From positions 24,871 to 88,870 of IMG/VR virus record IMGVR_UViG_2824317532_000002: DNA of 64,000 nucleotides; one strand, 5' to 3'. The notes beneath the pieces were generated by a model. That model had not been told where the DNA came from. It worked only from the letters and a program-made list of their open reading frames with translations, and searched no databases. Position numbers and translations under genes: made by a program. This document shows, piece after piece, positions 1 through 31,593 of this stretch (the stretch's first letter is position 1; every line of letters starts with the position of its first letter). The stretch is from a virus. Taxonomy: Duplodnaviria > Caudoviricetes.

Positions 1-194
1 GCAGCCCACGCAGCCTTGCGGCGCGTCGCAGGTGTCGTCCCACGGCGGCCGGTAGTGCGTGCAGGTCTTGCAGCCGCGCGCGGCCGGGTTGGTCCAGCAG
101 CGGCCGATGTGGTCCCGGACCCGGGCCCGGACCGCCCCTGTGCGAGGGCAGTGCGGGCACCGGTATCGGGTGGTTGTGAAGGCGATCGGCTCGG

Positions 195-626
195 TCACCG
201 GGCACCTCCCGCCAGGTCGAACAGGTCCAGCTGCCCGTGCAGCTCCCGGTGCCGACGCGTCTCCGGCTGCCCGTGCCGTTTCACCCGGGCCGGGCCGGCA
301 TCGAACAGCCCCGGGTTCGTTTCCGGCTCCGGCGGCGGGCAGTCGCACGGGCACACCCACCGGCACGGGCGGCCCGACAGCCACACCTCGGTGCGGGCGG
401 CACCGCGGTGGTTGACGATGAACGTCTCGCAGACGATGTGCGGCTGCTGCTTGGTCCGGCACAGGTGGTGCCGTCCGGCGTCGCAGTGCCCGCACTGGCC
501 GGCGTGACAGCGGCAGTTGACGATGGTCCGCGGGTTGCCTTCGATCGTGCAGCTGTCGCGGTAGGTGTCGGTGAGCACCTCGTGGTAGATCCAGTCGGCG
601 GCGGCCGCCGTCATCGGGGCGATCAC
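195..626 (-). CDS. Hypothetical Cys-rich phage protein
   Basis: GTG start overlapping the upstream stop; CRC..CGHC..C and CRWVCPCDC motifs. Confidence 0.6.
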   Translation of the reverse strand: MIAPMTAAAADWIYHEVLTDTYRDSCTIEGNPRTIVNCRCHAGQCGHCDAGRHHLCRTKQQPHIVCETFIVNHRGAARTEVWLSGRPCRWVCPCDCPPPEPETNPGLFDAGPARVKRHGQPETRRHRELHGQLDLFDLAGGAR

Positions 627-889
627 CGCTGCCTCCACTCGTTCACCTCGGGGCAGGTCGTGAAGTGGGCCTTGCGCCGGGTGCCACCGAACAGCGTCGG
701 CCCGGAGACGACGGTGGCGACCGGGCCGACCCACAGGCCGGGCTGGAGCGACAGCTCGACGTTGCCGCCCTCGCTCGGCTCGGCGTCGACGGGCATCGGC
801 TTGCCGCCGCTGCTGGTGGCCCACACGATCGGGGCGTCACAGGAGCGGCAGGCGGCGATCTCGTAGCCCTCGGGCGTCCGGCCGCTCAC
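623..889 (-). CDS. Small phage zinc-binding protein
   Basis: CRSC-x-IVW...GKPMPVD...HFTTCP, a recurrent small phage protein pattern; coupled to neighbours. Confidence 0.7.
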   Translation of the reverse strand: MSGRTPEGYEIAACRSCDAPIVWATSSGGKPMPVDAEPSEGGNVELSLQPGLWVGPVATVVSGPTLFGGTRRKAHFTTCPEVNEWRQR

Positions 890-1137
890 GGCGCGCCGTC
901 CGAATCGGCAAGACGTAGCAGCTCACGCGCCTCGTCCAGCGCCCGGCGGCGTCGCGCCTTCTCGCCCGGCAGTGGGAACGGACCCATCCCGACGACCTTG
1001 ATGCAGGAACCGGCCGAGGCTTCCCGCCGGGCCCGGCACCAGTCGATGGCGTACCGGACCAGCGCGTACGGCATCAGCAGCACGACCAGCGGCACGATGC
1101 CGCCGCACCAGGTGCCGTTGGGGTAGCGGCGGGTCAT
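886..1137 (-). CDS. Small membrane protein
   Basis: One hydrophobic segment; 4-nt overlaps with both neighbours. Confidence 0.55.
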   Translation of the reverse strand: MTRRYPNGTWCGGIVPLVVLLMPYALVRYAIDWCRARREASAGSCIKVVGMGPFPLPGEKARRRRALDEARELLRLADSDGAP

Positions 1138-1415
1138 GCGGCACCGACCTCAGGCCAGGGCAGCGGGCGCAGCTCCCGACGCCGCACAACGTGCTGACGC
1201 ACCAATTCCAGGCCATGGCCATCGAGGTCGATGCGCATCCGGCCGTTGCTGTCGTGCCAATAGATGGGGATCCGCCATTCCTGGGTCGCCGAGTCGTAGG
1301 CAAACTGGGCGTAGACGGGGACTCGGGTGTAGTTGATGCGGTGATCGGTGAGCCAGGCATGGATCTGTTCGCGCTGGTCGGCCATCAACTGGAGGTATGG
1401 AACGTGCTCGGCCAT
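1134..1415 (-). CDS. Hypothetical phage protein
   Basis: Translationally coupled ORF, RBS GGGGGA. Confidence 0.6.
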   Translation of the reverse strand: MAEHVPYLQLMADQREQIHAWLTDHRINYTRVPVYAQFAYDSATQEWRIPIYWHDSNGRMRIDLDGHGLELVRQHVVRRRELRPLPWPEVGAA

Positions 1416-1627
1416 CACGATCCCCCCTCGCCGCCGGGCCACAGACGGAGCCGCCGGTCCAGCAGCGCGTCCATCGCGGCCCGCGTGAGCGGCGTCCGCG
1501 GCCGTTCGACGCGGTACTCGTCCAGCTTCGTGTCGATCTCGGCAAGCCGATCCGCGAGCGGGCTCGGCGTGGCGGCCTTGGGGTCGATGCCGGCCGGCTG
1601 GGAGCGGTTGAGGAATCGGTCGAACAT
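1415..1627 (-). CDS. Hypothetical phage protein
   Basis: MFDRFLNR..., TGATG coupling, GGAGG RBS. Confidence 0.55.
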   Translation of the reverse strand: MFDRFLNRSQPAGIDPKAATPSPLADRLAEIDTKLDEYRVERPRTPLTRAAMDALLDRRLRLWPGGEGGS

Positions 1628-2079
1628 CAGGACCTCCCGAGCCGGGTCAGCCCGCTCGGCAGAGTCCGGATCGACATGGCGCAGATCTCCAGCAGGGCCG
1701 AGCCGTACCGGCCCCGCTCCCAGCCGTCCGGGACCTCGGCGACCTTGCGCAGCAGCGCCTCGAACGCCGCCTGGTCGCCGTTGCCGCGTGCCTGGATCAG
1801 ATCCATTGCCCACTGCTTCGGGGCCTCCAGGTCGCCACCGAGTTCGCCGGTCTCCACGGCCATCGGGATGACCCGCATCGGCGAGAAGTCCCACGTGCCG
1901 CCGTTGATGTGGGCGAGGACGGTGTCGCACCAGCCGATCAGGGCGTCGATGATCCCGTCGGGGCATTCGGTGGCGAGGCGCTCGAAGGCGCTCTGGGCGC
2001 GGGGAATGTTGCCCGCGACCATGGCGTAGAGCGCGACGGAGGCGAGACGAATGGGCTTGCTGTGCTGTCGGTCGGTCAT
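1627..2079 (-). CDS. Hypothetical phage protein
   Basis: MTDRQHSK..., TGATG coupling. Confidence 0.6.
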   Translation of the reverse strand: MTDRQHSKPIRLASVALYAMVAGNIPRAQSAFERLATECPDGIIDALIGWCDTVLAHINGGTWDFSPMRVIPMAVETGELGGDLEAPKQWAMDLIQARGNGDQAAFEALLRKVAEVPDGWERGRYGSALLEICAMSIRTLPSGLTRLGRS

Positions 2080-2333
2080 CAGGAGGCTCCGTCCTGGTCG
2101 GTGAAGATGACAGCCAGACGGCGCGCGGCCGCACAGACCGTGCACGTCTCCCGGCTGCTGTCGGAGTAGTGGTAGTGCCGGGGCAGCTCGGCGAGCACGG
2201 CAAGGATGTCGCGGGCGACCTGGCCGAGCGCCGACTCCAGCCCGCTCCGGACACCCTCGGCGGTCGGGTTGAGCGACAGCTCGTCGGCGATCGTGTTGGT
2301 CATGCGGGTGAGCAGGGTTTCGCGGATGGTCAT
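2079..2333 (-). CDS. Hypothetical phage protein
   Basis: MTIRETLL..., HYH..CxxC, ATGA coupling. Confidence 0.55.
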   Translation of the reverse strand: MTIRETLLTRMTNTIADELSLNPTAEGVRSGLESALGQVARDILAVLAELPRHYHYSDSSRETCTVCAAARRLAVIFTDQDGAS

Positions 2334-2689
2334 GCCGCACCGTCCAGCGGGGTGCCGTAGCCGGCCTGCCGCAGCAGCCGGGCCATCTGCGCCACCGTGC
2401 ACGTCGCATACCACTCGCCGGCATCGCCCTTGCCGCGCCGCTTGTGCACGACGATCCCGTAGTCGGCGCCGTCGTTGGCCTGCTCCAGCACGGCCTCGTC
2501 GACCCAGCCCGCCAGGTTGAGGCTGGCGTGGTTCTTCACCTCGACGACCACGCCGGGGATGCCCGCCAGGTCGCCGCGGTCCTGGGCGGATCCGGCGAGG
2601 CGACGCTCGGCGTGCGGGAAGCCCGCGGTGCGCAGGTAGTCGACCAGGCCCCGCTCGGCGGCCGTGCCCTTGCGCTTGGAGGCGCTCAC
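2330..2689 (-). CDS. Holliday junction resolvase (Hjc-like PD-(D/E)XK)
   Basis: KRKGTAAER...DRGDLAG...VVEVKN motif; follows RecT. Confidence 0.85.
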   Translation of the reverse strand: MSASKRKGTAAERGLVDYLRTAGFPHAERRLAGSAQDRGDLAGIPGVVVEVKNHASLNLAGWVDEAVLEQANDGADYGIVVHKRRGKGDAGEWYATCTVAQMARLLRQAGYGTPLDGAA

Positions 2690-3504
2690 TCGGCACCGCC
2701 CGGGACCTCGGCGGGGGCGGGCCAGTCCTCGGCCACCTCGCCCTCGATGGCGTCCTGCCGCGACGGGGCGACGGTGGCCGGCGGCGCGTACGTCACCGGC
2801 ATGACTGCGGACTGCTGCGGGGCGGCCATCCGGGCGATCTCGCGCCGATACTCGGTGCTGGACGGCACCCATTTCTCCAGCTCGTGCACCGCGCACTTGA
2901 GCCACATCGACCGCTCCCACTTCTTCCACGGGGAGTCGGAGCGGCTGTTGGACGGGTTCATGTCGCGGTGGGCGAGAACCTCCTCGCGACCCATCTCGAC
3001 CGGGCGGGACATGCCGCCGTCGAGCATCACCGCGTACGCCCACACGCCGACCAGCTCGCCGCGTTCCTCCGCCGACGCGAACCGCTCGAATCGGTGGATC
3101 GGGTGCGGCATGCCCTCCTCGTACTCGTAGAAGTCGTTCTTGCGAACGACCTCCGCGCGCACCGACTGCACGGCCCCGGCCCGGTAGATGCGCTCGATGA
3201 CGCCCCGGTAGCCTTCCCAGCCCTCCACGGCGCCCTTGATCGGGACGAAGTAGTAAGCGGGGGTGCCGGGCTCGTGGCCGAGGCGGGCGCAGTCGAGCAT
3301 CGCCGTCATCAGCGACCCGGCGTTGTTCATGGCCGCCCGCATCAGGTTCTGATCACGGCGTAGCACACCCTGGGCGAGGCGGACGAAGGTCGCGGGCGGC
3401 AGGTGCGAGGGCAGGACCGCGGCGAAGTCGTCGCGGTAGCCGGCGACCAGCGTGGTCGGCGAGGTGTCCCGCTGGGCGACGGCGCTGGTGACGGTCTCGG
3501 GCAT
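2686..3504 (-). CDS. recT: RecT-family ssDNA annealing protein
   Basis: GSLMTAMLDCARLGHEP..AYYFVPIKG..GYRG..SPWKKWERSMWLKCAVHEL.KWVPSS. Confidence 0.92.
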   Translation of the reverse strand: MPETVTSAVAQRDTSPTTLVAGYRDDFAAVLPSHLPPATFVRLAQGVLRRDQNLMRAAMNNAGSLMTAMLDCARLGHEPGTPAYYFVPIKGAVEGWEGYRGVIERIYRAGAVQSVRAEVVRKNDFYEYEEGMPHPIHRFERFASAEERGELVGVWAYAVMLDGGMSRPVEMGREEVLAHRDMNPSNSRSDSPWKKWERSMWLKCAVHELEKWVPSSTEYRREIARMAAPQQSAVMPVTYAPPATVAPSRQDAIEGEVAEDWPAPAEVPGGAE

Positions 3505-3725
3505 CAGAAGCTCTCCCCGTGGGATGCGGCGTGCTGGTTGATGAAGTCGATGAACTCGGCGAGCCGGGTGGGCTCGAAGTACGGCTTGTCGCGGCGGATG
3601 ACGTTCCAGCCGTAGTAGGCGATCGAGCCGTGCTCGTATGTGTCGCAGCCCGAGTGGTGGCAGTCGAGAGAGACGTCACCGTCCTCGTCGCCGGTGAGCC
3701 GTAGGTACTCCGGGATCTCAGGCAT
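3504..3725 (-). CDS. Hypothetical phage protein
   Basis: Coupled ORF between YqaJ and RecT. Confidence 0.6.
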   Translation of the reverse strand: MPEIPEYLRLTGDEDGDVSLDCHHSGCDTYEHGSIAYYGWNVIRRDKPYFEPTRLAEFIDFINQHAASHGESF

Positions 3726-4746
3726 AGGAGTCCGCCCTTCCGGGGTTGAGTCGGTCGGTGGTCGGCCACGCGTCGTCGATGGCCATCAGTTCGTGCTCGT
3801 CGTCGCTGCGCCGCTCGAAGACGGAGCGGGAGGCGACGAGCTTCTTGCCGCACATGGCCCGGTTGAAGTCGGAGCCGAGCGCCGCCCGGATCTCCGCCTC
3901 GCACGCCGCGACCCGGGCCTTCGCCTCGTCCCGGTCGGCGCGGGCCTGCCGGTACCGCTCGGCCAGCTCGACCGACACCTGCACCTCGCCGTCGCCGAGC
4001 GTCGGATGGAGCCGCTGGAGAGCGCTGATCGTGGCGTCGTGGCCGCCCAGGTCCGGGGCGTCGCCGCCTTCCAGGCGCTGGAAGAAGTCGAAGCCGGCGG
4101 CCCGCATCACCTCCAGGTCGGCCTGTGCCGCCTCGTTGATGTGCACGACGTACGACCGGAATCCGGTCGGGCCGAGGGCGGCGATGTAGACGGTGGAGAC
4201 GCCGAGGACGTCGGCCTGCCACAGCACCTGGGCGCGGTAGTAGACGGGGATCTCGTCGGTGCCGGGCTCGCCCCAGCCGTCCCAGCTGTGAGCCACCCAC
4301 TTGCACTCCAGCAGGGCGACCAGCGAGCCGCCCTTGCCGTTGCAGTCCGGGCAGTAGTAGGTGAACCGGCCGCTCGGGTAGAGCCCGGTGCCCTCGCAGT
4401 CCGCGCAGGGCGTGAGCAGCAGCCCGTCCGGGGTGGCGAGCTGCCACGGCCGATCCGGGTGGGCGTAGAGCCCGGCCGACCGCTTGATCAGGTTCTCCAG
4501 CGGGTCGCACGCGGCCATCCACCAGTCGGCGATGGCGTCCTCGAGGTGGCTTCCCGCCGAGGTGAGGTCGTTGCCGTCCCACCGCCAGTCGTTGACCTTC
4601 GCCCAGAACAGGCTGAACGGGCTGTCGTACGGGCTGATCCCCATGACGACGGCGATCTCCGACGCGGTCACGCCCTCACGGCGCAGCTGATGCCACTGCT
4701 CGTCGTGGTTTCCGGTGCCGGGCGGCAGCAGCTCGACGGGGGTCAC
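3718..4746 (-). CDS. YqaJ/RecE-like exonuclease with inserted CxxCxGxG zinc finger
   Basis: WHQLRREGVTASEIA, ATPDG, LLECK, YYRAQVLWQ motifs; upstream of recT. Confidence 0.9.
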   Translation of the reverse strand: MTPVELLPPGTGNHDEQWHQLRREGVTASEIAVVMGISPYDSPFSLFWAKVNDWRWDGNDLTSAGSHLEDAIADWWMAACDPLENLIKRSAGLYAHPDRPWQLATPDGLLLTPCADCEGTGLYPSGRFTYYCPDCNGKGGSLVALLECKWVAHSWDGWGEPGTDEIPVYYRAQVLWQADVLGVSTVYIAALGPTGFRSYVVHINEAAQADLEVMRAAGFDFFQRLEGGDAPDLGGHDATISALQRLHPTLGDGEVQVSVELAERYRQARADRDEAKARVAACEAEIRAALGSDFNRAMCGKKLVASRSVFERRSDDEHELMAIDDAWPTTDRLNPGRADSYA

Positions 4747-5210
4747 CCGGCCACCTCCGCCGGGTGCGGGTTGAGGTCGAACCGGAGCCGGGTGACGTGC
4801 ACCCACCGCTCCCCGGCCTCGGCCTCGGCCGGCCACCACCGGGCGAGCAGCCCACACCGCACGCACCGGCCGTACCGCTCGTCGGCGGCGTAGGCGATGT
4901 CGGCGGGGATCAGGTCCAGGGCGGCGAGGACACGGAGCACCTCGGCGGCGTCGCGGATGCCGTCCATCCCGGCGTACAGCTCCGGCTTACCGTGAACCGG
5001 CTTGTGCTTCACGGTGAGGTCGATGCCGCCGTTGCCGCTACGCCACCGCCACACCTCGACCTCACGGCCATCGGCGAGTTTCCAGGCCAGCTCCAGAGCA
5101 GTGGAATCGCGCACGTTGTCGAGCACAAATCGCGGCGCGGTGACGCTCTTCTGCTGCCGGGCCCACCGCATCGCGCGGCCCACCGCGCGCCAGTTCGGAA
5201 ACGTCTTCAC
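4743..5210 (-). CDS. Hypothetical phage protein
   Basis: GTG start with GGAGG RBS; coupled. Confidence 0.55.
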   Translation of the reverse strand: MKTFPNWRAVGRAMRWARQQKSVTAPRFVLDNVRDSTALELAWKLADGREVEVWRWRSGNGGIDLTVKHKPVHGKPELYAGMDGIRDAAEVLRVLAALDLIPADIAYAADERYGRCVRCGLLARWWPAEAEAGERWVHVTRLRFDLNPHPAEVAG

Positions 5211-21772: not shown

Positions 21773-22177
21773 CTATGCCGCTGACTCGCGGTCGAGCACT
21801 GATACCCAGGTGGGGGACACGTCGAGCAACGCGGCGACATCGCGCACGGTCAGCTTCATGCTCCTCAGCCTGGCCACGGCTTGCCGGGTCTGCTGGTCGG
21901 CCTGTCGCTGAGCCTCGGCCGCAGCGTCCTTGGCCGCTTTCACGCCGGCCACCACGTTCGCGACCTGCCCGGACGGGGTGATGGTCACCGCGAAGCTGTC
22001 CGCCGGTACGTCGAGCAGGAGAGAGAGCATGTCCCGCACCATCGGCTCAACGTCGGCTAGCTTGCGCGCCTGCGTGTACGCCATGTCCACGCCGGGGACC
22101 TCGACGAACCACCAGTCCCCGGACCTTCTCACCCGCGCCTCGTAGGTCTTCACCGCTCGAAGCTCCCTCGTGCTCAT
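21773..22177 (-). CDS. hicB: HicB-like antitoxin with C-terminal HTH
   Basis: YEARVRRSGDWWFVEVPGVDMAYTQARKL.DVEPMVRD...LTVRDVAALLDVS. Confidence 0.85.
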   Translation of the reverse strand: MSTRELRAVKTYEARVRRSGDWWFVEVPGVDMAYTQARKLADVEPMVRDMLSLLLDVPADSFAVTITPSGQVANVVAGVKAAKDAAAEAQRQADQQTRQAVARLRSMKLTVRDVAALLDVSPTWVSVLDRESAA

Positions 22178-22863: not shown

Positions 22864-24261
22864 CTAGGCGGGTTGAGCAACCGCCTCCCCCAGAGCCTCG
22901 GCGACGACCTTGAGCACTGGCTCCCACGAGTCGACGGCGTGCCCGGCCGCCAGGACTACGTTCACGGTTCGGCTCCTCGATGGCGTGGTCACTTGGAAGG
23001 CGGCCCCCAGCGACTGGCGGGCGGTATTCAAGGCCACGCGCACCTCCGTGCCGAGCGCCCGCGTGGGGCTACCGATCCGCAGGTCGAACGTGAAGCCGTC
23101 GACCTCGCCCCGACCGGCCACGCTCACCGTGTTCAGTCGCGCCACCGGCTCCGGGGTCGACGCCTTGCGCTGGTCCGGCACCGTCGACTTCTTCGGGCCG
23201 GGCATCGCAGGCTTCGGCGGGACGGTCATCTTCCCCGCCTTCGGCTTGGGGGCCGCCTTCGGTTTCGCGGCCGGCTTGGACCTGGTCGAGACTTCGGCCT
23301 TGGACGCCTCGGCCAGGTGGCGTGTTGCGAACCACGTCACCTGGCTCAGGATCTGACTTTCGGCCAGCTCGCGATCGAAGTCCTTGCAGGAGCACTTCCA
23401 GTGGTACAGCGGGACGTAGGTCAGGGCTCCGGCGTCGTCGTAGCCGGATACGGCCAGGCTCTGAGTCATGACCAGCTTGTGACCCGGGATCGGCTCGAAC
23501 TTCGGCAGAACCTCGCGGGCAGGCTTCGCGGGCGTCGGCTCGGTCCCGGCAGCCTGCTGCGTCTCCACGAGGTGGCCGTGGCTCATCAGGTGCCGGGCAG
23601 CCTGCCGGGCGGCCTGGCCTGCGTAGTACACGGTCTCGCGCTCCTGCGCCTTCGCGCCGCATTCGCACCGCCAGGTATGCCCGTCTGCCCAGTCGTTGAA
23701 CTGGATCCCGCCGAAGACTTCGACCCGGTGCCCCGGCTCAATACGGAGCTTCCAAATCCTGTTCTCGCCAGCGGGCAGACCGCAACTGGCGTCGTCTGCG
23801 ATTTCAGCGAAAGCCTCAGTCTCCGTGACATACACGGGCACGGGGTAGCACCCGGCGATCACCGCTTCGGGGTCGAGGTCATGGCGCAGCTTTGCCCACA
23901 CCTCAGTCACGACGGTGACCGGCTCGGGTTCCGACTCGGCCGACATGACCTCCAGACCGGGCAGGGCCTCCGGCTCGACCGGCTCGACCGGCTCGACCGG
24001 CGCGGCTGGCGCGGCTGGGGCCCGCTGGCCCATTTGCCGGATGTACCGCGCGGTGTCGAATTCGATTCCGATACCGGCCGCCCACGCTCCAGCCTCAGTG
24101 GTCACGTACTGGCCGGATTCTTCGGCCTCGATCCACTCGGCGACAATGCACGCCGCGATGGTGGAGTCGCGCGGTCGGGTCAGCTTGGCGCTCTCGTGTC
24201 CGGCGTACCGCAGGATCGCGTTTCGCTGCGCCGGGGTCGGCTTCCTGGCGATCGTTCCCAT
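22864..24261 (-). CDS. Large multidomain hypothetical protein with two WxCxC...RHL modules
   Basis: 465-aa ORF, AAGGGA RBS, PVE repeats, Lys/Pro linker. Confidence 0.65.
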   Translation of the reverse strand: MGTIARKPTPAQRNAILRYAGHESAKLTRPRDSTIAACIVAEWIEAEESGQYVTTEAGAWAAGIGIEFDTARYIRQMGQRAPAAPAAPVEPVEPVEPEALPGLEVMSAESEPEPVTVVTEVWAKLRHDLDPEAVIAGCYPVPVYVTETEAFAEIADDASCGLPAGENRIWKLRIEPGHRVEVFGGIQFNDWADGHTWRCECGAKAQERETVYYAGQAARQAARHLMSHGHLVETQQAAGTEPTPAKPAREVLPKFEPIPGHKLVMTQSLAVSGYDDAGALTYVPLYHWKCSCKDFDRELAESQILSQVTWFATRHLAEASKAEVSTRSKPAAKPKAAPKPKAGKMTVPPKPAMPGPKKSTVPDQRKASTPEPVARLNTVSVAGRGEVDGFTFDLRIGSPTRALGTEVRVALNTARQSLGAAFQVTTPSRSRTVNVVLAAGHAVDSWEPVLKVVAEALGEAVAQPA

Positions 24262-24289
24262 GGCGGATCCCTTCATCATGACTAAACAC

Positions 24290-24613
24290 CTACTCCTTGC
24301 GAGTGCGCTCTTCCGCGCACACCTCGCGCCACTGCTCGATAACCTGGCCACGCAGGATCGTCAGGCCGGAAACCATGTCGTCGAGCGTGTCGATCAAGTG
24401 GCTCAGCGCGTCTGATCGGTTCTCCGGGTACTCGCCCGCCTCCCTGGCGCGCAGTGTCGCGTTCTCGCCAGGCTTGCGGTCCGGCGGCGACACGTACACC
24501 GTGCCCGACACATCCCAGATGCCCTGGAGCGTCGCCGCGCCAGCACGGACCGCGCGCAGGACTTTCAGGATGTGGCGACGACTCGCGGCACGCGGGCTAC
24601 CGGAACGGCTCAC
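24290..24613 (-). CDS. Hypothetical phage protein
   Basis: GTGA-coupled ORF. Confidence 0.55.
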   Translation of the reverse strand: MSRSGSPRAASRRHILKVLRAVRAGAATLQGIWDVSGTVYVSPPDRKPGENATLRAREAGEYPENRSDALSHLIDTLDDMVSGLTILRGQVIEQWREVCAEERTRKE

Positions 24614-24966
24614 CGGGTCACGCCCACGGCGTCAGCGATCACGAGCAGGTCATCGGCCGTACGGTGGTCGAGCCAGACGACGCTGTACGCCAAACCCAGG
24701 TCATGCGTGCAGTCACCGTCAAGGCGCGACGGACCGTAGACGGTACCCTCACGGTCGCGCTCCACCATGAGATCAATCTCCAGCGCGGCCGGAGCGCATG
24801 ACTGCGGACCTTCCGGGTCTTCCGGATTGTTCGGCATCCATGCCAGTTCGCCGCGCTCCAGCTCGGCACGCAAGTACTCCCACGCCTCACGGGCAGTGTC
24901 GAATACCGGCGGCTCGTCATCCATCGGCAGGTAGCCAGGGATGTTCACGTAGGCAGTAAATGACAT
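24610..24966 (-). CDS. Hypothetical acidic phage protein
   Basis: NIPGYLPMDDEPPVFDTAREAW; GAGAGGG RBS. Confidence 0.7.
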   Translation of the reverse strand: MSFTAYVNIPGYLPMDDEPPVFDTAREAWEYLRAELERGELAWMPNNPEDPEGPQSCAPAALEIDLMVERDREGTVYGPSRLDGDCTHDLGLAYSVVWLDHRTADDLLVIADAVGVTR

Positions 24967-24995
24967 TGCATTCCCTCTCTGCGGGCATTCTTACG

Positions 24996-25048
24996 TGCCC
25001 CGGGCAGGGATCGAACCTGCATTCGCACGCCTGTTGTGCGCCCGGGGC
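24996..25048 (-). ncRNA. D-armless tRNA-like minihelix
   Basis: GCCCCGG-G-CGCAC(AACAGGC)GTGCG-AAT-GCAGG(TTCGATC)CCTGC-CCGGGGC-A: 7-bp acceptor stem plus canonical T-arm. Confidence 0.7.
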
Positions 25049-25053
25049 CAACA

Positions 25054-25413
25054 TCAGTTGTCGAGCAGCAAATCGGTCATGTCATCGGGCTCCGGCAGGT
25101 AGTGCGCGCCAAGCGCATCGCGCGTGTCGGCACTAGACAGGCTCAGCGCGTCCGTAAGGATGGCCTTCCACCACTCATCCATCGGCGCTTCTTCCAGCCA
25201 TTCCGAGAGCAGGTTCGCGACCGCGATTCCAACCACGCGCACGCAGTCGGAATAGTCGGCACCGTGCGCATAGGCCGCCCGGTATGCATCCTGGCTCGGC
25301 GGGACTGATCCCATGTCGTTAACGATTGCCTCCTGCGCGGCTTCCGTGATCGCGTAGTAGCGCGCGAAGTCATTGTTGTCAGCGATAAGTGTCACGGCGT
25401 CAATGAGACTCAT
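25054..25413 (-). CDS. Hypothetical acidic phage protein
   Basis: GAGGA RBS; flanked by structured gaps. Confidence 0.65.
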   Translation of the reverse strand: MSLIDAVTLIADNNDFARYYAITEAAQEAIVNDMGSVPPSQDAYRAAYAHGADYSDCVRVVGIAVANLLSEWLEEAPMDEWWKAILTDALSLSSADTRDALGAHYLPEPDDMTDLLLDN

Positions 25414-25473
25414 TGGGGTTTCCTCTCAGCATTGCCCACGGAATGCAGGCAGGGGGGTGAAGGCGAATTCGGA

Positions 25474-25845
25474 TCAGTACTGCGGAAGGTCTTTCCAGCC
25501 GTCCACATCTTTGCCGCCGTCCGTGACGAAACGGTGTTCCAGGTAAGCGAGCATCGCCGTGCGAATCGCAAGGTCCGATTCGGTAGGGTCGCCATGCGGA
25601 GAATCCATCCACCAGCCAAAGAGGGATTCGTCCATGTAATCCACTGGCGTTGCGAATTGATCCTCAGCGTGGTTGAAGTCGTATGGGAAGGCAAAGTTTC
25701 CTGTGCTGTCAAACCAGCAGGAAGCCCAGTTCCACGTGTAGGCGTGCGCGAACTGGCGCGCGGCGCGATCGGAAATGATGGCGTCATTCGCGTTAGCCTC
25801 GCGAGCCTCAGCCAGCGACCAGCTACTCACGTGCGCATTTCCCAT
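25474..25845 (-). CDS. Hypothetical phage protein
   Basis: IISDRAARQFAHAY; aromatic/acidic. Confidence 0.65.
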   Translation of the reverse strand: MGNAHVSSWSLAEAREANANDAIISDRAARQFAHAYTWNWASCWFDSTGNFAFPYDFNHAEDQFATPVDYMDESLFGWWMDSPHGDPTESDLAIRTAMLAYLEHRFVTDGGKDVDGWKDLPQY

Positions 25846-25876
25846 TAGGCCGTTCCGTTCTCTCGGTATTGCGGAG

Positions 25877-25924
25877 TGCCGTACCGGGCCATGACACCCG
25901 TGCCCGCCTACGCGGGAGTACGGC
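25877..25924 (-). ncRNA. Second tRNA-like three-way junction
   Basis: GCCGTAC-T-CCCGC(GTAG)GCGGG-CA-CGGGT(GTCATG)GCCCG-GTACGGC-A. Confidence 0.5.
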
Positions 25925-25930
25925 CGTGAA

Positions 25931-26308
25931 TCATTCGCGCGACATCTGAGCGGAGTAGTTCAGGAACGTTTGGCCAGACATGCCCGTGCCGTACCGGCTG
26001 GCGCAGTTCGGGCAGAGGTAGTAGCCATCGGCCGGAACGCTGTCGATGAACACGCGCGCCGGAATGGTGCGGAACCGTGCCGTGTCCATGTGGCAAATGA
26101 GGCACAGCTCGCCGCGCTCACCGCTCTTCGCATAGAACGCCAGCGTTTCCACCAGGGTCCATGCCGCACGATGAGCCTCTTCGCAGGTCCACAGGTACGC
26201 GTTCCGGTCCTGGGGCAGGCCCGTCTCGTCGGCCTTCCGCGCAGCTCTACTGATCTTGAGATCCCAGAGGTCCCGTAGGTCAACAATCAAACGCAATTCA
26301 GGGGTCAT
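25931..26308 (-). CDS. Hypothetical zinc-binding phage protein
   Basis: CLICH...LCPNC; GGAG RBS. Confidence 0.6.
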   Translation of the reverse strand: MTPELRLIVDLRDLWDLKISRAARKADETGLPQDRNAYLWTCEEAHRAAWTLVETLAFYAKSGERGELCLICHMDTARFRTIPARVFIDSVPADGYYLCPNCASRYGTGMSGQTFLNYSAQMSRE

Positions 26309-26377
26309 GGTAAGACTCCATTTCGTGAGGGAGGAATTGCAGGGGGAAGTGCCTCGGATCTCAGTCCGTGAGTGGCA

Positions 26378-26447
26378 GGCCATCATCGGGCACGGAATGC
26401 CAATCCGCGCGACGGTATGACCCGTTTCCGGGTCCACCGTTTCGGCC
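26378..26447 (-). ncRNA. Type II hammerhead ribozyme, variant core CCGAUGA
   Basis: GGCC-GAAA-stem III (CGGTG/GACCCG GAAA CGGGTC/TACCG)-UC cleavage triplet GUC-stem I (GCGCGGA/TCCGTGC)-CCGATGA-T-GGCC. Confidence 0.75.
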
Positions 26448-26453
26448 GTGAAA

Positions 26454-27101
26454 TCAGACCAGCGCGGGTCGTCCGAGCGATTTCCGCTTGAGGTTGCGAA
26501 GCGAGATCAGTAGGAACTTCTCGGCCGAGTCACCCCAGATCACATCGTTACCGGAACACTCCGGGTAGAAGTCGTCCTCGCTCACCGCCTGCCAGAAACC
26601 CTGTTCGATTTCCTCGCGAGTGAATTCGTCCGCCACTTCCTGCCACCACTCCGGAAGGTCGGAGTACAGATCGGCGAACAGGTAGCCGCTGAATGACTCG
26701 TGAGCAGCCTCGTATTCAAGCTCACTCAAGTCGGACTCGTCGTAAACCGGGTACTGCTCTTTCAGGCCGATGACCGTGTTGATCAGGCGATCCGAAACCG
26801 AGTGCAGGAAGAACCCGAGTCCGTCGCACCCGGTGTATCCGACACGAAAGAACGCCATGCCGTAATCGCGCTCCAAGCTGCGGAAGTTGCTGATCTCCCA
26901 GAATGAGACCTGTCCCGCCCAATCCTCAGAGATCGCGCCGTCCACCTCGACAAACGGGCGCTCCGTCTCGTCGTAAGCGAACGGGTGAGCGTAAGCGGAG
27001 TGAATCCGGCCCTTCTCGTAAACGTCGGCCGGATCGGCGTAGCGCACGCTGAAACCAGCGCGCTTCAAATCGTCGATACGCTCTGCAAGCTTGACGTTCA
27101 T
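26454..27101 (-). CDS. Hypothetical acidic phage early protein (first gene of leftward operon)
   Basis: WEISNFRSL...LKEQYPVYDESDLSELE; directly downstream of the promoter. Confidence 0.7.
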   Translation of the reverse strand: MNVKLAERIDDLKRAGFSVRYADPADVYEKGRIHSAYAHPFAYDETERPFVEVDGAISEDWAGQVSFWEISNFRSLERDYGMAFFRVGYTGCDGLGFFLHSVSDRLINTVIGLKEQYPVYDESDLSELEYEAAHESFSGYLFADLYSDLPEWWQEVADEFTREEIEQGFWQAVSEDDFYPECSGNDVIWGDSAEKFLLISLRNLKRKSLGRPALV

Positions 27102-27172
27102 GCCCTGCCTTTCGGGTGCTGAGTAAACACTAGGCTCGCTCGGTTCGCTGCGCTGCCGAACCGATGGGAAGA

Positions 27173-27201
27173 ACGCTAGTCCAGGACAAGACTAAACACA
27201 A
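27173..27201 (-). promoter_or_regulatory. Main leftward early promoter TTGTGT-N17-TAGCGT with operator across -35/spacer
   Basis: Minus strand TTGTGTttagtcttgtcctggacTAGCGT; second operator at 27121-27130. Confidence 0.6.
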
Positions 27202-28120
27202 GTCCGGGGTGGAACTTTCTTGTTTTCCCTGCTCAGAACGCCTGTCAGGCGCTGGGACGCGAGGCCTGCGCGCCCATGGGCACGGCTACCAGGCAGAGGC
27301 GTTCGCCCCGCCCGTGAACGTCACGCTGCGGTCCGCTCGCGCCTCCGCACGTGTAGCCGTGACCCTCGCATGCGTGCGCGCGCCTGCGTGCCTCTCAGGT
27401 CCACGGGTGCCCATGCAGCGGCGAGGTGCCCTAGTCGCATGACACAGCCGGCATCTCACTGGCCTAGTCACTAGGACAGTAGTCATCTGACAGCTTGCCG
27501 TATCCCAGCGTGACTCACCCGTTACCGGGGGTATGACCCCCTGCGAGCTGGGACGCTCACCGGCCGTGGCTAGCACCTGAGATTCTGCCACGGTTCCAAA
27601 GTCGCCCAAGACGCGACGAAGCGCCGCCACCCGATGGGCAACGGCGCTGGTCAGACAGTGTTCCGGCGGCGAGCTAGTCCTCGTACATGGCTGCCCGGTT
27701 CGCCTCCTGAAATTCCTCCTGGCTGAGGTCGCCGGCAAGGTGCATGCCCAGGGTTGTGTAGGTGACGTGAGCGACTTCCAGGCGCTGCATCACCGATCAG
27801 CCCGTGATGGTCTCTCATGTTCTTACCTGGCTGCCCGACCTACGCGGCCACGGTACCAAGGCCGATCCGTCCTGTAAGTGAACGAGGCCAGGACGATTGC
27901 GGTGTATGGCCGGTTGGTCTCATCGAAGGAAGCGGCTCCCATAGGACATGACTATACACGACCGGGGCCTTCGGCCCCACGAGCGGGTTAGCCGGCTAGC
28001 AAGGGATTCCGCTGCCTTCTCTTCGCCGATGCATGGGGCCTCCGGCCCCTGTGGGTTTCCTTCGCCGCTGGGCGATCACATGGCTGGTTCTCTTGGAAGG
28101 GTTCAAGAGCATGGTTTGGG

Positions 28121-28325
28121 TGCACTCCACTGCACCCCGGTTACGAACTAGAGTTCACCCCGGTCAGGAACTACAGTGCACCCCGGTTGCCGGACCGGGG
28201 TGAATCCCACTGCACCCCTGTGGATAAACCGGGGTGAACTGCGCTGCACCCCGCCTGAGCTGCGAAAACAAGCCGGGGTGAACTGGAGTGCACCTCGGTC
28301 TGCCGCCGACGCAATCCCGGGGTCG
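28121..28325. repeat. Cluster of about 9 direct/inverted T(G/T)CACCCCGG repeats with a DnaA-box match
   Basis: Copies at 28131, 28154, 28177, 28195(rev), 28211, 28229(rev), 28245, 28273(rev), 28289; TGTGGATAA at 28219-28227. Confidence 0.75.
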
Positions 28326-28621
28326 TGACCTGAACCACAGCCAACCTCCGTTAGCCCGAGCTGAACCCGTACTACTAGTGAAGGGGTTAACCAGTAAGCC
28401 TGCTGACCAGCTAGCCAACTACCGAGCTAGCCCAGTAGAGAGCTAGGAAGTTAGAGAGCTTGGATCTGACGAGCCAACCCGCTGACCCGGTTGGAAGTTG
28501 GAGAGATGAAGAGCTTGGATCTAACCCGCTAGCCGGTTAACCCCAGCAGACCAGGTCTCGGGTCTACGCCTACGGGCAAACGTAGCCGAGACCTACAGCA
28601 AGACAGTACTGGTGGTGACTC

Positions 28622-28939
28622 GTGGGCAACGGCAGATGGCAAGGTAGTGATCGCCGGCAGCGACTCCCCCAGAACTGGCCATCCATTCAGCGACGCATTC
28701 TCAAGAACGCTGAATTCCGGTGCACCGTGAGAACCGAGGGGAAACGGTGCACCGAGCAGGCGACGGAAGTCGACCACATTCGTGCTGGTGACGATCATCG
28801 AGATTCCAACCTGAGAGCTATCTGCGGATGGCATCACCAGCAGAAATCATCCCGTGAAGGCGGGGAGGCGTACGCCGCGAACCGGCGACGCCAGGCCGCC
28901 AAGTTCAAGCGCACAGAGGCACACCCCGGCCTGCTGTAG
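28622..28939 (+). CDS. HNH endonuclease (packaging-associated)
   Basis: WQGSDRRQRLP..W...C...ATEVDHI..GDDH..SNL..ICGWHH..KSSREG. Confidence 0.9.
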   Translation: MGNGRWQGSDRRQRLPQNWPSIQRRILKNAEFRCTVRTEGKRCTEQATEVDHIRAGDDHRDSNLRAICGWHHQQKSSREGGEAYAANRRRQAAKFKRTEAHPGLL

Positions 28940-29031
28940 CGCTGCGGCGAGGGTCGAGGGCTCTCCCCTTGCTGCTTGTGCCCCAGCTCGCCCCTCTCCG
29001 AGCTGGGGCCTTCAACGTTTCCGGAGGTGCC

Positions 29032-29493
29032 GTGAGCCTGCATACGGTTCCGCTTACACGCACTCAGGCCAACGACCTGATTGCCCGCCGGCACCGGCAC
29101 CACAAGCCTGTTCACGGGCTCCGGTTCGCGATCGGCCTGGTCGACGAGGTCGGCCAGCTCCGCGGCGCAGCGGTTGTTGGCCGACCGGTGGCACGCATGA
29201 CCGACCCGTACCGGGTTGCGGAGGTGACCCGCCTCGTCACTGATGGGGTGCCGAACGGCTGCTCAATGCTCTACCAGGCGGCAGCCAGGGCCGCGAAGGC
29301 TATGGGCTACGAGCGCATTCAGACCTTCATCCTCTTGAGCGAGCCAGGCACCTCACTTCGGGCTTCCGGTTGGGAGATGGATCGAACCACGAAGCCTGAG
29401 GGGTGGTCGAGGCCGAGCCGCATTCGAGAAGACGAGCACCCCACCGAGGCCAAGATGCGCTGGTATCGGCAGCTCAACACGCCACGCCTGTAG
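29032..29493 (+). CDS. XF1762-family (Mom-like GNAT) protein
   Basis: ANDLIARRHRHHKPV.G...GAAVVGRPVAR...EVTRLVTDG.PNGCSMLY.AAARAAKAMGY..IQTFIL.SEPGTSLRASGW. Confidence 0.75.
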   Translation: MSLHTVPLTRTQANDLIARRHRHHKPVHGLRFAIGLVDEVGQLRGAAVVGRPVARMTDPYRVAEVTRLVTDGVPNGCSMLYQAAARAAKAMGYERIQTFILLSEPGTSLRASGWEMDRTTKPEGWSRPSRIREDEHPTEAKMRWYRQLNTPRL

Positions 29494-29496
29494 GAG

Positions 29497-29937
29497 GTGA
29501 TCGCCTTGCCAGGTCCCGTACCGAACCGCGAGGCGGACCTCGCCCGGCCCCGTGAGCGCAAGGGTGCCGACCAGCAGTCGGTGACCCGCGGAACCGCTCG
29601 GCCGGCGAAAGCCCCGAACGCTGATCGGTCCTGGCACCCGATCGCCCAGCGACTCTGGGATGCCGCGAAGGAGTCCGGCCAGTCGGACTTCTATCAGGCG
29701 TCCGACTGGGCACTGCTGTACTCGCTGTGCGAAGACCTCAGTGTTTACAAGAAGTCCACGAAACGGTCCGGCCAGATGCTCCAGACCATTTACTCCGCAT
29801 TCGAGCGCCTACTGATCGCCGAAGGCGACCGGCGCCGAGTGCGCATCGAACTGCACGAACCCGAGGACGAGACCGCCACGCCAGCCAGCGTGACCGTCAT
29901 GAACGAGTACAGGGCGGCCCTCGGCATCGCGAACTAA
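29497..29937 (+). CDS. Terminase small subunit
   Basis: PGPVPNRE..LAR, WHPIAQRLWD..KESGQ.DFYQ.SDWA, LLIAEGDRRRVRIEL; precedes TerL. Confidence 0.85.
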   Translation: MIALPGPVPNREADLARPRERKGADQQSVTRGTARPAKAPNADRSWHPIAQRLWDAAKESGQSDFYQASDWALLYSLCEDLSVYKKSTKRSGQMLQTIYSAFERLLIAEGDRRRVRIELHEPEDETATPASVTVMNEYRAALGIAN

Positions 29938-29952
29938 CCGAGGGGGTGAGGC

Positions 29953-31593
29953 ATGGCTGCGGCCACCCTGACCCCCGAGGAGATTGAAGCACTGGAGCCC
30001 GACTTCTACGGGCCGACCTGGCAGCGCAACGACGACGGCTCCTGGCACCTGCCTCGCTGGACGCTCGGATGGCAGATCGCCGCCTGGTGCGCCGAGTACC
30101 TGCGTGCCGAGGACGGCGGGCCCTGGCGGTTCACGCCGGAGCAACTGCGCTTCATCTTGTGGTGGTACGCGGTCGACGAGAGCGGCCGGTTCGTCTACCG
30201 CAAGGGAGTTCTGCAGCGGCTCAAGGGCTGGGGTAAGGACCCGATCGTTGCGGTCATGTGCCTGGTCGAGCTGGCCGGGCCGAGCCGGTTCTCGCACTTT
30301 GAGCTGGATCAGGCGTTCGGCGTGCCGCACCCGCAAGCCTGGGTTCAGGTCGCCGCGGTTTCGCGTGACCAGACCCGCAACACCATGACGCTGTTCCCCT
30401 CGCTGATGAGCGACAGGTTCATCGAGACCTACGGCATCAAGGCGGGCGCCGAGCTGATCCGTGCGAACGGTGGCCGGCAGCGCCTCGAAGCGGTGACCAG
30501 CTCCTATCGGGCGCTGGAAGGTGGCCGCTCGACGTTCGTCGTCCTGAACGAGACGCACCACTGGATCGCCGGGAACAACGGCCACCAGATGTACGACACG
30601 ATCGACGGCAACACGACCAAAAAGGACTCCCGGTATTTGGCGATCACCAACGCCTTCTTGCCTGGTGAGGACTCGGTTGCCGAGAAGATGCGCCTGGCCT
30701 GGGAGAAGATTCGCGAGGGTAAGGCAATCGATGTCGGCTTCCTCTACGACTCGATCGAGGCGCACCCGAAGACCCCGTTGACGCCTGAGGCGTTGCGGAT
30801 CGTCCTGCCGAAGATTCGCGGCGACGCGGTCTGGCTCCGGGTCGAGACGATCATCCAGTCGGTTCTCGACCTGACGATCGCGGCCAGCCGGTCGCGTCGG
30901 ATGTGGCTCAACCAGATCGTCGCCGAAGAGGACGCGCTCTTCTCGTCGGCCCAGTGGGTTCCGCTGGAGATCGAAGGCGCGATCCTCAAGCCTGGCGACG
31001 AGATCACGCTCGGGTTCGACGGCGGTAAAACCGATGATGCCACCGCCCTTGTGGCTCTCCGGCGGTCGGACAACTGCGCGTTCGTGCTTGGCCTGTTCGA
31101 GAAGCCGGACGGTCCGGCCGGCGAAGGCTGGCGGGTCAGTCAGGCGGCGGTCGACTCGGTAGTGCATGACGCGTTCCGCCTGTTCAAGGTGCTCGGGTTC
31201 TACGCCGACGTGGCGTTGTGGGAGTCCTACATCACTGCGTGGACGGAGACGTACGGCGAGGGCCTGAGCGTCAAGGCGGGTGCCGGAGGCGCGATTGCCT
31301 GGGACATGCGGACCAGCTTGAAGCGCTCAACCATGGCGCATGAGCGCCTGATGCAATCCGTGTTCGACGGCAAGATCCACCATGACGGTGACCTGGCGCT
31401 GCGGCGCCACGTGCTCAACGCACATCGCCGTGTCAACAACTACGGCATCAGCTTCGGCAAGGCCGGCGGGCGCGAGTCGCCCCGCAAGGTCGACGCCTAC
31501 GCGGCCCTGATGCTCGCCCACGAGGCGATGCACGACTTCCGTACCCGCGGCAAGCGCGTCAAGGAGCGCTCAGGTCGCGGCTATTTCCTCTGA
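29953..31593 (+). CDS. Terminase large subunit
   Basis: LQRLKGWGKDP Walker A, LNETHHW Walker B, LGFDGGKTDD nuclease, KVDAYAA. Confidence 0.95.
   Translation: MAAATLTPEEIEALEPDFYGPTWQRNDDGSWHLPRWTLGWQIAAWCAEYLRAEDGGPWRFTPEQLRFILWWYAVDESGRFVYRKGVLQRLKGWGKDPIVAVMCLVELAGPSRFSHFELDQAFGVPHPQAWVQVAAVSRDQTRNTMTLFPSLMSDRFIETYGIKAGAELIRANGGRQRLEAVTSSYRALEGGRSTFVVLNETHHWIAGNNGHQMYDTIDGNTTKKDSRYLAITNAFLPGEDSVAEKMRLAWEKIREGKAIDVGFLYDSIEAHPKTPLTPEALRIVLPKIRGDAVWLRVETIIQSVLDLTIAASRSRRMWLNQIVAEEDALFSSAQWVPLEIEGAILKPGDEITLGFDGGKTDDATALVALRRSDNCAFVLGLFEKPDGPAGEGWRVSQAAVDSVVHDAFRLFKVLGFYADVALWESYITAWTETYGEGLSVKAGAGGAIAWDMRTSLKRSTMAHERLMQSVFDGKIHHDGDLALRRHVLNAHRRVNNYGISFGKAGGRESPRKVDAYAALMLAHEAMHDFRTRGKRVKERSGRGYFL

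Follow-up and report, generated by a model that had tools for sequence, protein, structure and literature searches.

A predicted type II hammerhead ribozyme with C at position 4 and an extra U between two genes of an Actinoplanes prophage

Results

The locus and its features

The stretch of DNA analysed here is 64,000 nucleotides long, and we refer to it as the window. It carries an Actinoplanes prophage with genes for a serine integrase, terminase, portal, major head (capsid) protein, tape measure, exonuclease and ribonucleotide reductase, and the large genes of this prophage are intact. The ribozyme lies within a leftward block of small genes adjoining the terminase. There, a 145-nt intergenic gap separates two minus-strand genes, and the element occupies the sense strand of this gap. 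An intergenic, sense-strand position in a prophage operon is typical of type II hammerheads. The initial annotation had read 26447..26378 as a type II hammerhead with C in place of U at position 4 (C4) and an extra U after A9, and the minus-strand letters are identical to that reading. The features, in the order of transcription, are as follows (R1 and R2 are covariance models, described below).

26454..27101, minus strand: upstream gene, 215 aa; its stop codon TGA (26456..26454) is 6 nt before the ribozyme
26444..26447, minus strand: stem II, 3' strand (positions 11.4-11.1), GGCC; pairs with 26381..26378, 4 bp, all G-C
26440..26443, minus strand: core G12 A13 A14 A15.1 (GAAA), aligned to the GAAA of RF02276, R1 and R2
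26440 and 26412, minus strand: A15.1 (26440) and U16.1 (26412), paired according to the sequence and the model alignments
26412..26439, minus strand: stem III hairpin, part of the MFE fold
26410..26411, minus strand: predicted cleavage site between C17 (26411) and G1.1 (26410), GUC/G, placed by alignment to the family consensus
26390..26410, minus strand: stem I hairpin, GCGCGGA with UCCGUGC, 7 bp including one G-U, from sequence and fold
26403..26397, minus strand: stem I loop UUGGCAU, from sequence and fold
26383..26389, minus strand: core C3-A9, CCGAUGA, from the sequence and the RF02276 alignment
26382, minus strand: extra U between A9 and G10.1, read from the sequence; a consensus position in R1 and R2
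26378..26381, minus strand: stem II, 5' strand (10.1-10.4), GGCC, from sequence and fold
26373..26377, minus strand: 3' tail UGCCA, pseudoknot strand, from the sequence; falls on the pseudoknot columns of the phage alignment
25931..26308, minus strand: downstream gene, 125 aa; the product is also 125 aa in the protein collection

The downstream gene has a GGAG sequence (26319..26316) 7 nt before its ATG at 26308, and the ribozyme ends about 60 nt upstream. No relative of the 125-aa protein was found in the protein collection. The 215-aa protein encoded upstream is acidic and has eight homologues in a large protein collection, together with a weak match to phrog_3906. Its predicted fold is confident (pLDDT 86, pTM 0.70); a Foldseek search gave no PDB fold match at E ≤ 0.001, no Pfam family was assigned, and sequence searches of Pfam, PHROGs and PDB gave no useful match. 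An ArdA-like or Ocr-like role for this protein, prompted by the ardA examples in PMC3088659, received no support.

The G+C content of 24000..30000, the block that contains the ribozyme, is 0.62-0.64 as compared with 0.65-0.74 elsewhere in the window, which is consistent with a recently acquired module. Among phage records, only the terminase/portal region showed similarity, at about 73% identity to Streptomyces phages such as phiHau3. A DNA search with 26250..26560 and tblastn searches with the two flanking proteins gave no match in these records. Neither phiHau3 nor Dexers gave a hammerhead in the Rfam scan at the gathering threshold or with R1 with filters off. Three side observations concern the same genomes. 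The open reading frames of the 24000..30000 block fall below the GC3 filter that selects most other genes. A HicB-like antitoxin match (phrog_8245, E 3.2e-22) is located at 21773..22177 on the minus strand in the same leftward prophage block. The tRNA-Trp annotated at 1200..1272 of phiHau3 (L015) is absent from the output of the Rfam gathering scan.

The element folds as a type II hammerhead

The segments are arranged in the helix order of a type II hammerhead: 11.x strand, GAAA, stem III hairpin, UH, stem I hairpin, CUGANGA box and 10.x strand. The nucleotides C3, G5, A6, G8, A9, G12, A13 and A14, the pairs A15.1-U16.1 and G10.1-C11.1, and an H17 other than G are all present. At position 4 (26388) the element has C where the consensus has U, and in this one position it departs from the U4 expected of RF02276. 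The initial annotation had stated that all stems pair and that stem III is capped by a GAAA tetraloop. This holds: the three-way junction is the MFE fold of the 70 nt (-36.7 kcal/mol, z -3.69), and none of 200 shuffled sequences was equally stable. Stem III, including the A15.1-U16.1 pair, consists of 6 + 6 bp split by a bulged A26418 and closed by the tetraloop at 26428..26425. Thus the assignment as a type II hammerhead with C4 and an extra U after A9 is supported by the fold, and it is supported likewise by R1 and R2.

We also considered an alternative register (26431..26380, minus strand), in which the stem III tetraloop serves as the core GAAA, stem II is formed by CCG/UGG and there is no extra U. 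It was dropped, since its energy was -15.8 kcal/mol as compared with -37.9 kcal/mol and it places a U-G pair at 10.1-11.1. When the window was scanned for type I and type III motifs with any base allowed at position 4, none was found. A reading of the site as a terminator was likewise rejected; there is no terminator-like site at the element.

In a 171-nt context, the pseudoknot-free MFE was -58.7 kcal/mol and the hammerhead-enforced fold was -55.8 kcal/mol, the pseudoknot being uncounted in both. The competing fold pairs CCGCGC (26462..26467), which is the end of the upstream coding region, with GCGCGG, the 5' strand of stem I (26405..26410), and it might slow the folding of the hammerhead. 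Ribosomes completing the upstream gene would open the CCGCGC:GCGCGG pairing; that this couples the ribozyme to translation is speculative.

The competing fold with the end of the coding region would also suit an RNA structure that acts mainly without catalysis and was selected for a purpose other than cutting, for instance a pair of stabilising hairpins, a site bound by a protein, or an element that couples the translation of the two genes. So would stem III, which is unusually long and stable: it has 12 bp and a GNRA loop and represents an insertion of 10-13 nt relative to the model consensus. However, the core, the A15.1-U16.1 pair, the GUC triplet and the register of the pseudoknot are all kept, and a role of that kind needs none of them. 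There was no evidence of another function. We therefore regard a mainly structural role as improbable.

A pseudoknot joins loop I to the 3' tail

A pseudoknot that is absent from the initial annotation moves the end of the element to about 26370. In loop I, UGGCA (26402..26398) can form 5 bp with the tail UGCCA (26377..26373), right after stem II, and the duplex energy is estimated at -7.3 kcal/mol. In the pseudoknot columns of the family, 5 of 5 positions pair in the window copy, and R1 and R2 do not encode the pseudoknot; the pair counts of the phage hammerhead alignment itself are partly circular, because its members were chosen by a pairing descriptor. One of these columns is changed on both sides in the window, with A-U in place of the consensus C-G. 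According to the available text of PMC3088659, loop I pairs with the bases that follow stem II in the majority of type II hammerheads, and this pseudoknot is required for fast cleavage.

Independent covariance models recognize the element

That consensus searches would miss this element had been predicted, and Rfam indeed gave no match, neither in a scan at the gathering threshold nor in a search of 451 nt. The initial annotation had also proposed a covariance search with the Rfam Hammerhead_II model, and the outcome was divided: RF02276 aligned to the element over its full length (1-66), but the score was 15.9 bits against a cut-off of 37. In this search of 96 nt, the E-value was 0.35, and UGG and GCCA of the window were placed on the loop and tail consensus of the model. 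The cut-off must be seen beside the scores of other copies. The canonical hammerhead copies in an array on a viral contig locus (L125) reach only 28-39 bits by Rfam; therefore, the cut-off of 37 loses true members.

We used two further models. R1 is a covariance model from 53 well-formed type II hammerheads in viral and metagenomic contigs, with the window excluded. It was run on the whole window, on both strands, with the full model and with filters off. R1 placed the element at 26446..26371 with 38.8 bits and an E-value of 1e-08, and the runner-up in the 64-kb window had 12.6 bits and an E-value of 0.25; the E-values of R1 and R2 are rough, as they come from short calibrations. Because the training set of R1 was enriched for C4 by the design of the search, we built R2 from 42 sequences, all of which have U4. 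Scanned over the whole window with the full model, R2 found the same site with 32.2 bits (E 3.8e-07), and its runner-up again had 12.6 bits. Further hammerheads were not seen in the 64-kb window, with nothing above 12.6 bits by R1 or R2.

How often such an arrangement arises by chance was estimated with a relaxed type II descriptor that leaves position 4 free, permits 0-2 insertions and requires stems of at least 4, 3 and 4 bp. In 1500 dinucleotide shuffles of the window it gave 34 matches, which is about 0.02 per window. In four of these the stems added up to 17 bp or more, which is the total observed in the element, and no match combined 17 bp with a pseudoknot of at least 5 bp. C was present at position 4 in 15 of the 34, as befits G+C-rich DNA. 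Since chance matches favour C4, the descriptor alone is weak evidence across a scan of many windows.

These numbers bear on whether the element is a look-alike, that is, a G+C-rich intergenic pair of hairpins in which GAAA, GUC and CCGAUGA happen to be suitably placed. With 34 matches to 1500 shuffles and an enrichment for C4 among them, good-looking false matches are expected over many windows, and the Rfam score of 15.9 bits would agree with such an origin. Against this stand the E-values of R1 (1e-08) and R2 (3.8e-07) in a window that otherwise yields 12.6 bits or less, a pseudoknot that falls in register though neither model encodes it, the combination of stem total and 5-bp pseudoknot in 0 of 1500 shuffles, and the location on the sense strand of an intergenic gap in a prophage. 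We consider a chance origin hardly credible. At the level of sequence, the independent covariance models settle membership of the ribozyme family, where the descriptor alone would not. The element is a genuine type II hammerhead, a member of the family by independent models, fold and context.

Relatives of the locus

In a scan of genome contigs for orthologues, only the identical locus was recovered, from Actinoplanes campanulatus JCM 3059 (L001). A lineage-specific DNA pattern matched three stretches in viral contigs, and the stems were present in none of these. Thus, no orthologue of the window copy was found in the collections searched, and there is no covariation for its own locus. Among ten loci that encode a homologue of the upstream gene, nine had no hammerhead. 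The tenth (L005) carries a canonical type II hammerhead at 245-311 (40.5 bits), right after a stop codon and approximately 130 nt upstream of the homologue gene (L005:443-1060), whose product is 37% identical to the 215-aa protein. Taking L005 together with the window, this gene family and hammerheads co-occur in at least two unrelated contigs.

The extra U and C4 recur in phage hammerheads

To place the two departures from the consensus, viral contigs were scanned with CGAAAC..GTC..C-N-GAUGA patterns. All counts are among the matches listed, and the samples contain near-duplicates. The minimum lengths for a well-formed copy were 5 bp in stem I, 3 bp in stem II and 4 bp in stem III. Among the matches listed, 48 CUGAUGA copies were well-formed in 114 identifiable loci out of 116. 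With CCGAUGA, 10 of the 118 loci listed were well-formed and eight of these had a pseudoknot of at least 4 bp. CAGAUGA and CGGAUGA gave no well-formed copy among the matches listed (0/118 and 0/119 loci, respectively).

The extra U is no oddity: of 96 well-formed hammerheads among the matches listed, 22 share the insertion of a U behind A9, 20 of them with U4 and 2 with C4, and they form a common phage subclass, C[U/C]GAUGA-U-GGC. An inserted G was seen once in the same set. We then left position 4 free in an extra-U pattern, CNGAUGAUGGC, which gave 121 matches among the matches listed. Well-formed copies numbered 102, and position 4 was U in 97, C in five, and A or G in none. In the remaining 19 of the matches listed, which were not well-formed, the base was T in 11, C in five, A in two and G in one.

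Accordingly, C4 is not peculiar to the window copy but is recurrent: it occurs in 5 of 102 extra-U examples among the matches listed, and the C4 sample comprises at least six lineages. As to the comparison of U with C in homologous phages, also suggested in the initial annotation, no orthologue of the window copy was found in the collections searched; C4 was seen in other phage hammerheads. Five viral loci among the matches listed have C4 and the extra U together (L068, L103, L499, L570 and L573), and L570 shares in addition a GGCC/GGCC stem II. By Rfam, C4 copies score 39.0 bits in L103, which is above the cut-off, 34.1 in L068, 29.7 in L051 and 26.9 in L125.

A census of the core in which one deviation was allowed anywhere covered 116 distinct copies in 4.9 Mb of loci. 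Twelve copies were deviant, 11 by T4C and one by A15.1G, and just 14 of the 116 copies had not been preselected by our own patterns. C4 is kept between diverged copies. In L068 and L388 the stem III sequences differ and stem I is changed, and the helices still pair; in L021 as compared with L039 and L060 the strands of stem III are swapped, and again the helices pair. From these sets, which were picked by a pairing descriptor among the matches listed and give rough shares only, C4 would make up roughly 5% of phage type II hammerheads and the extra U roughly a quarter. We take these shares as a lead. No report of them was found in the literature searched; the figures and supplements of PMC3088659 may list C4 examples.

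Two further observations were made in these contigs. L060 (5669-6033) and L467 (4704-5068) carry a near-identical cassette of approximately 95 nt comprising the hammerhead, a ribosome-binding site and a start codon, and the flanking coding DNA has diverged. The sequences suggest that such units of hammerhead and ribosome-binding site are mobile or conserved as modules. The two cassettes differ at position 4 (C in L060, U in L467), in one loop base and by one indel; because they are otherwise near-identical, that change to C4 must be very young. Separately, the viral contig locus L125 (8,523 nt) has a dense array on its minus strand (about 166..5156): 12 or more type II hammerheads built to a common design, GGCCGAAACGGCGCGC...C[U/C]GAUGAGGCC, follow one another at a spacing of about 240-900 nt. 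Two of these copies have C4, and by our own test none of them has a pseudoknot of loop I with the tail.

Is the C4 copy still a ribozyme?

The most serious alternative is that the element descends from a hammerhead, lost its U4 through a mutation to C, and is now catalytically dead or nearly so and at most a structured spacer. U4C considerably lowers activity in vitro, according to the available text of PMC3088659. T-to-C is the commonest change expected in DNA of 65-70% G+C. C4 accounts for only 5 of 102 extra-U copies among the matches listed, a share for which a trickle of mildly deleterious mutations could suffice, and the difference at position 4 between the near-identical cassettes of L060 and L467, which points to recent substitutions, also fits mild damage.

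However, the three helices and the five pseudoknot pairs of the element are intact and its core has no other deviation. Moreover, C4 persists in diverged lineages in which the helices were kept (L068/L388, and L021 versus L039/L060). Copies with A4 or G4 are missing among the matches listed (0/118, 0/119 and 0/102), and T4C accounts for 11 of the 12 deviants even when a deviation was allowed at any position of the core. The large genes of the prophage are intact as well. On whether C4 is tolerated or a sign of damage, the observations pull in both directions; loss of activity is unlikely in our estimate, though it is a reading to be taken seriously.

A stronger claim in the opposite direction is that C4 hammerheads are not damaged copies but a subclass that has been maintained and whose function is tuned. 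U4 is one of the bases of the uridine turn. Because cytosine does not have the N3-H that U4 gives to this turn, C4 ribozymes could be slow, pH-dependent through a protonated C, or metal-dependent. The natural A6C variant of another phage hammerhead, which prefers Mn2+ (see below), would be a parallel for a C4 ribozyme tuned by metal. If such tuning exists, phages could set the timing or the extent of mRNA processing with variants of this kind. We think this claim doubtful at present; with C4, the extra U and a strong pseudoknot in one RNA, the window copy would be a good test case for it.

Discussion

We propose that the element is a working, probably slow, self-cleaving type II hammerhead of the extra-U/pseudoknot subclass and a natural C4 variant, and we give this reading a probability of roughly 0.68. 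Most likely, it processes a polycistronic mRNA, and probably slowly. We infer cleavage, its rate and its effect on both mRNAs and on mRNA stability as follows. The ribozyme would be transcribed within a leftward polycistronic mRNA of the phiHau3-like prophage, between the genes for the 215-aa and 125-aa proteins. In the folded RNA, the usual hammerhead transesterification would break the chain 3' of C26411 and generate one end with a 2',3'-cyclic phosphate and one with a 5'-OH. The transcript would thereby be divided into two messages: an upstream one closed off by the stable 12-bp stem III hairpin and the cyclic phosphate, and a downstream one that opens with the 5'-OH, followed by the stem I hairpin. 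With C4 in place of U4, cleavage is probably slower, and the pseudoknot and the extra U may help to maintain activity. Gene-by-gene processing of mRNA has been proposed for prophage hammerheads in the available text of PMC3088659.

Thus, the locus gains an unannotated predicted ribozyme that probably splits the transcript of a prophage operon. The hammerhead family is known and there are precedents for both deviations; the element is new only as a member, which had no annotation. The Rfam model and consensus descriptors miss the window copy, and models trained on phage sequences find it easily. If shares of about 1/20 for C4 and about 1/4 for the extra U hold in a full census, descriptors should allow both. 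C4 would then also offer a natural entry to the importance of the uridine turn in full-length hammerheads stabilised by a pseudoknot.

Comparison with known systems

The closest known systems are the type II hammerheads of bacteria and phages (RF02276; Perreault et al. 2011), as described in the available text of PMC3088659. The window copy shares with them the permutation with an open stem II and capped stems I and III. The core, the GUC triplet, the pseudoknot pairing of loop I with the tail, and an intergenic position by genes of a prophage operon are also common to both. It differs from them in having C4, a longer stem III and a 4-bp stem II, and in scoring only 15.9 bits.

Among phage hammerheads, those with the extra U (for example L382, L389, L422 and L479) resemble it further. 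Their junction likewise reads C[U/C]GAUGA-U-GGC, with the pseudoknot strand next, and they have UGGC in loop I and GCCA in the tail, as the window copy does. Outside these conserved columns there is no sequence similarity. Unlike the other extra-U hammerheads, the window copy resides in an actinomycete prophage of much higher G+C, and one pair of its pseudoknot is A-U as compared with the consensus C-G.

Each of the two departures has a precedent in viroids. A U4C viroid hammerhead (Ambros and Flores 1998) was much less active in vitro and yet sufficient in vivo, as cited in the available text of PMC3088659. The CChMVd (+) hammerhead accommodates an additional base at the junction of A9 and G10.1 (De la Pena and Flores 2001), and a U at this position raises the rate 3-4 fold, according to the portions of PMC3705267 and PMC1636495 that were accessible. 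Thus, as far as these sources describe, the same two departures as in the window are each compatible with biological function. The viroid hammerheads differ in that they are of type III, belong to circular RNA replicons, rely on loop-loop contacts and carry one deviation each, whereas the window copy has both deviations together in a DNA-encoded type II hammerhead with a pseudoknot.

Finally, the hammerhead of phage Bcep176 is likewise an intergenic phage ribozyme with a single-base variant of the core, at position 6 rather than 4. Its natural A6C change makes it slow with Mg2+ and leaves it active with Mn2+, according to the available text of PMC3088659 and PMC7151607. Bcep176 is thus an earlier case of a core variant by which activity is adjusted and not abolished.
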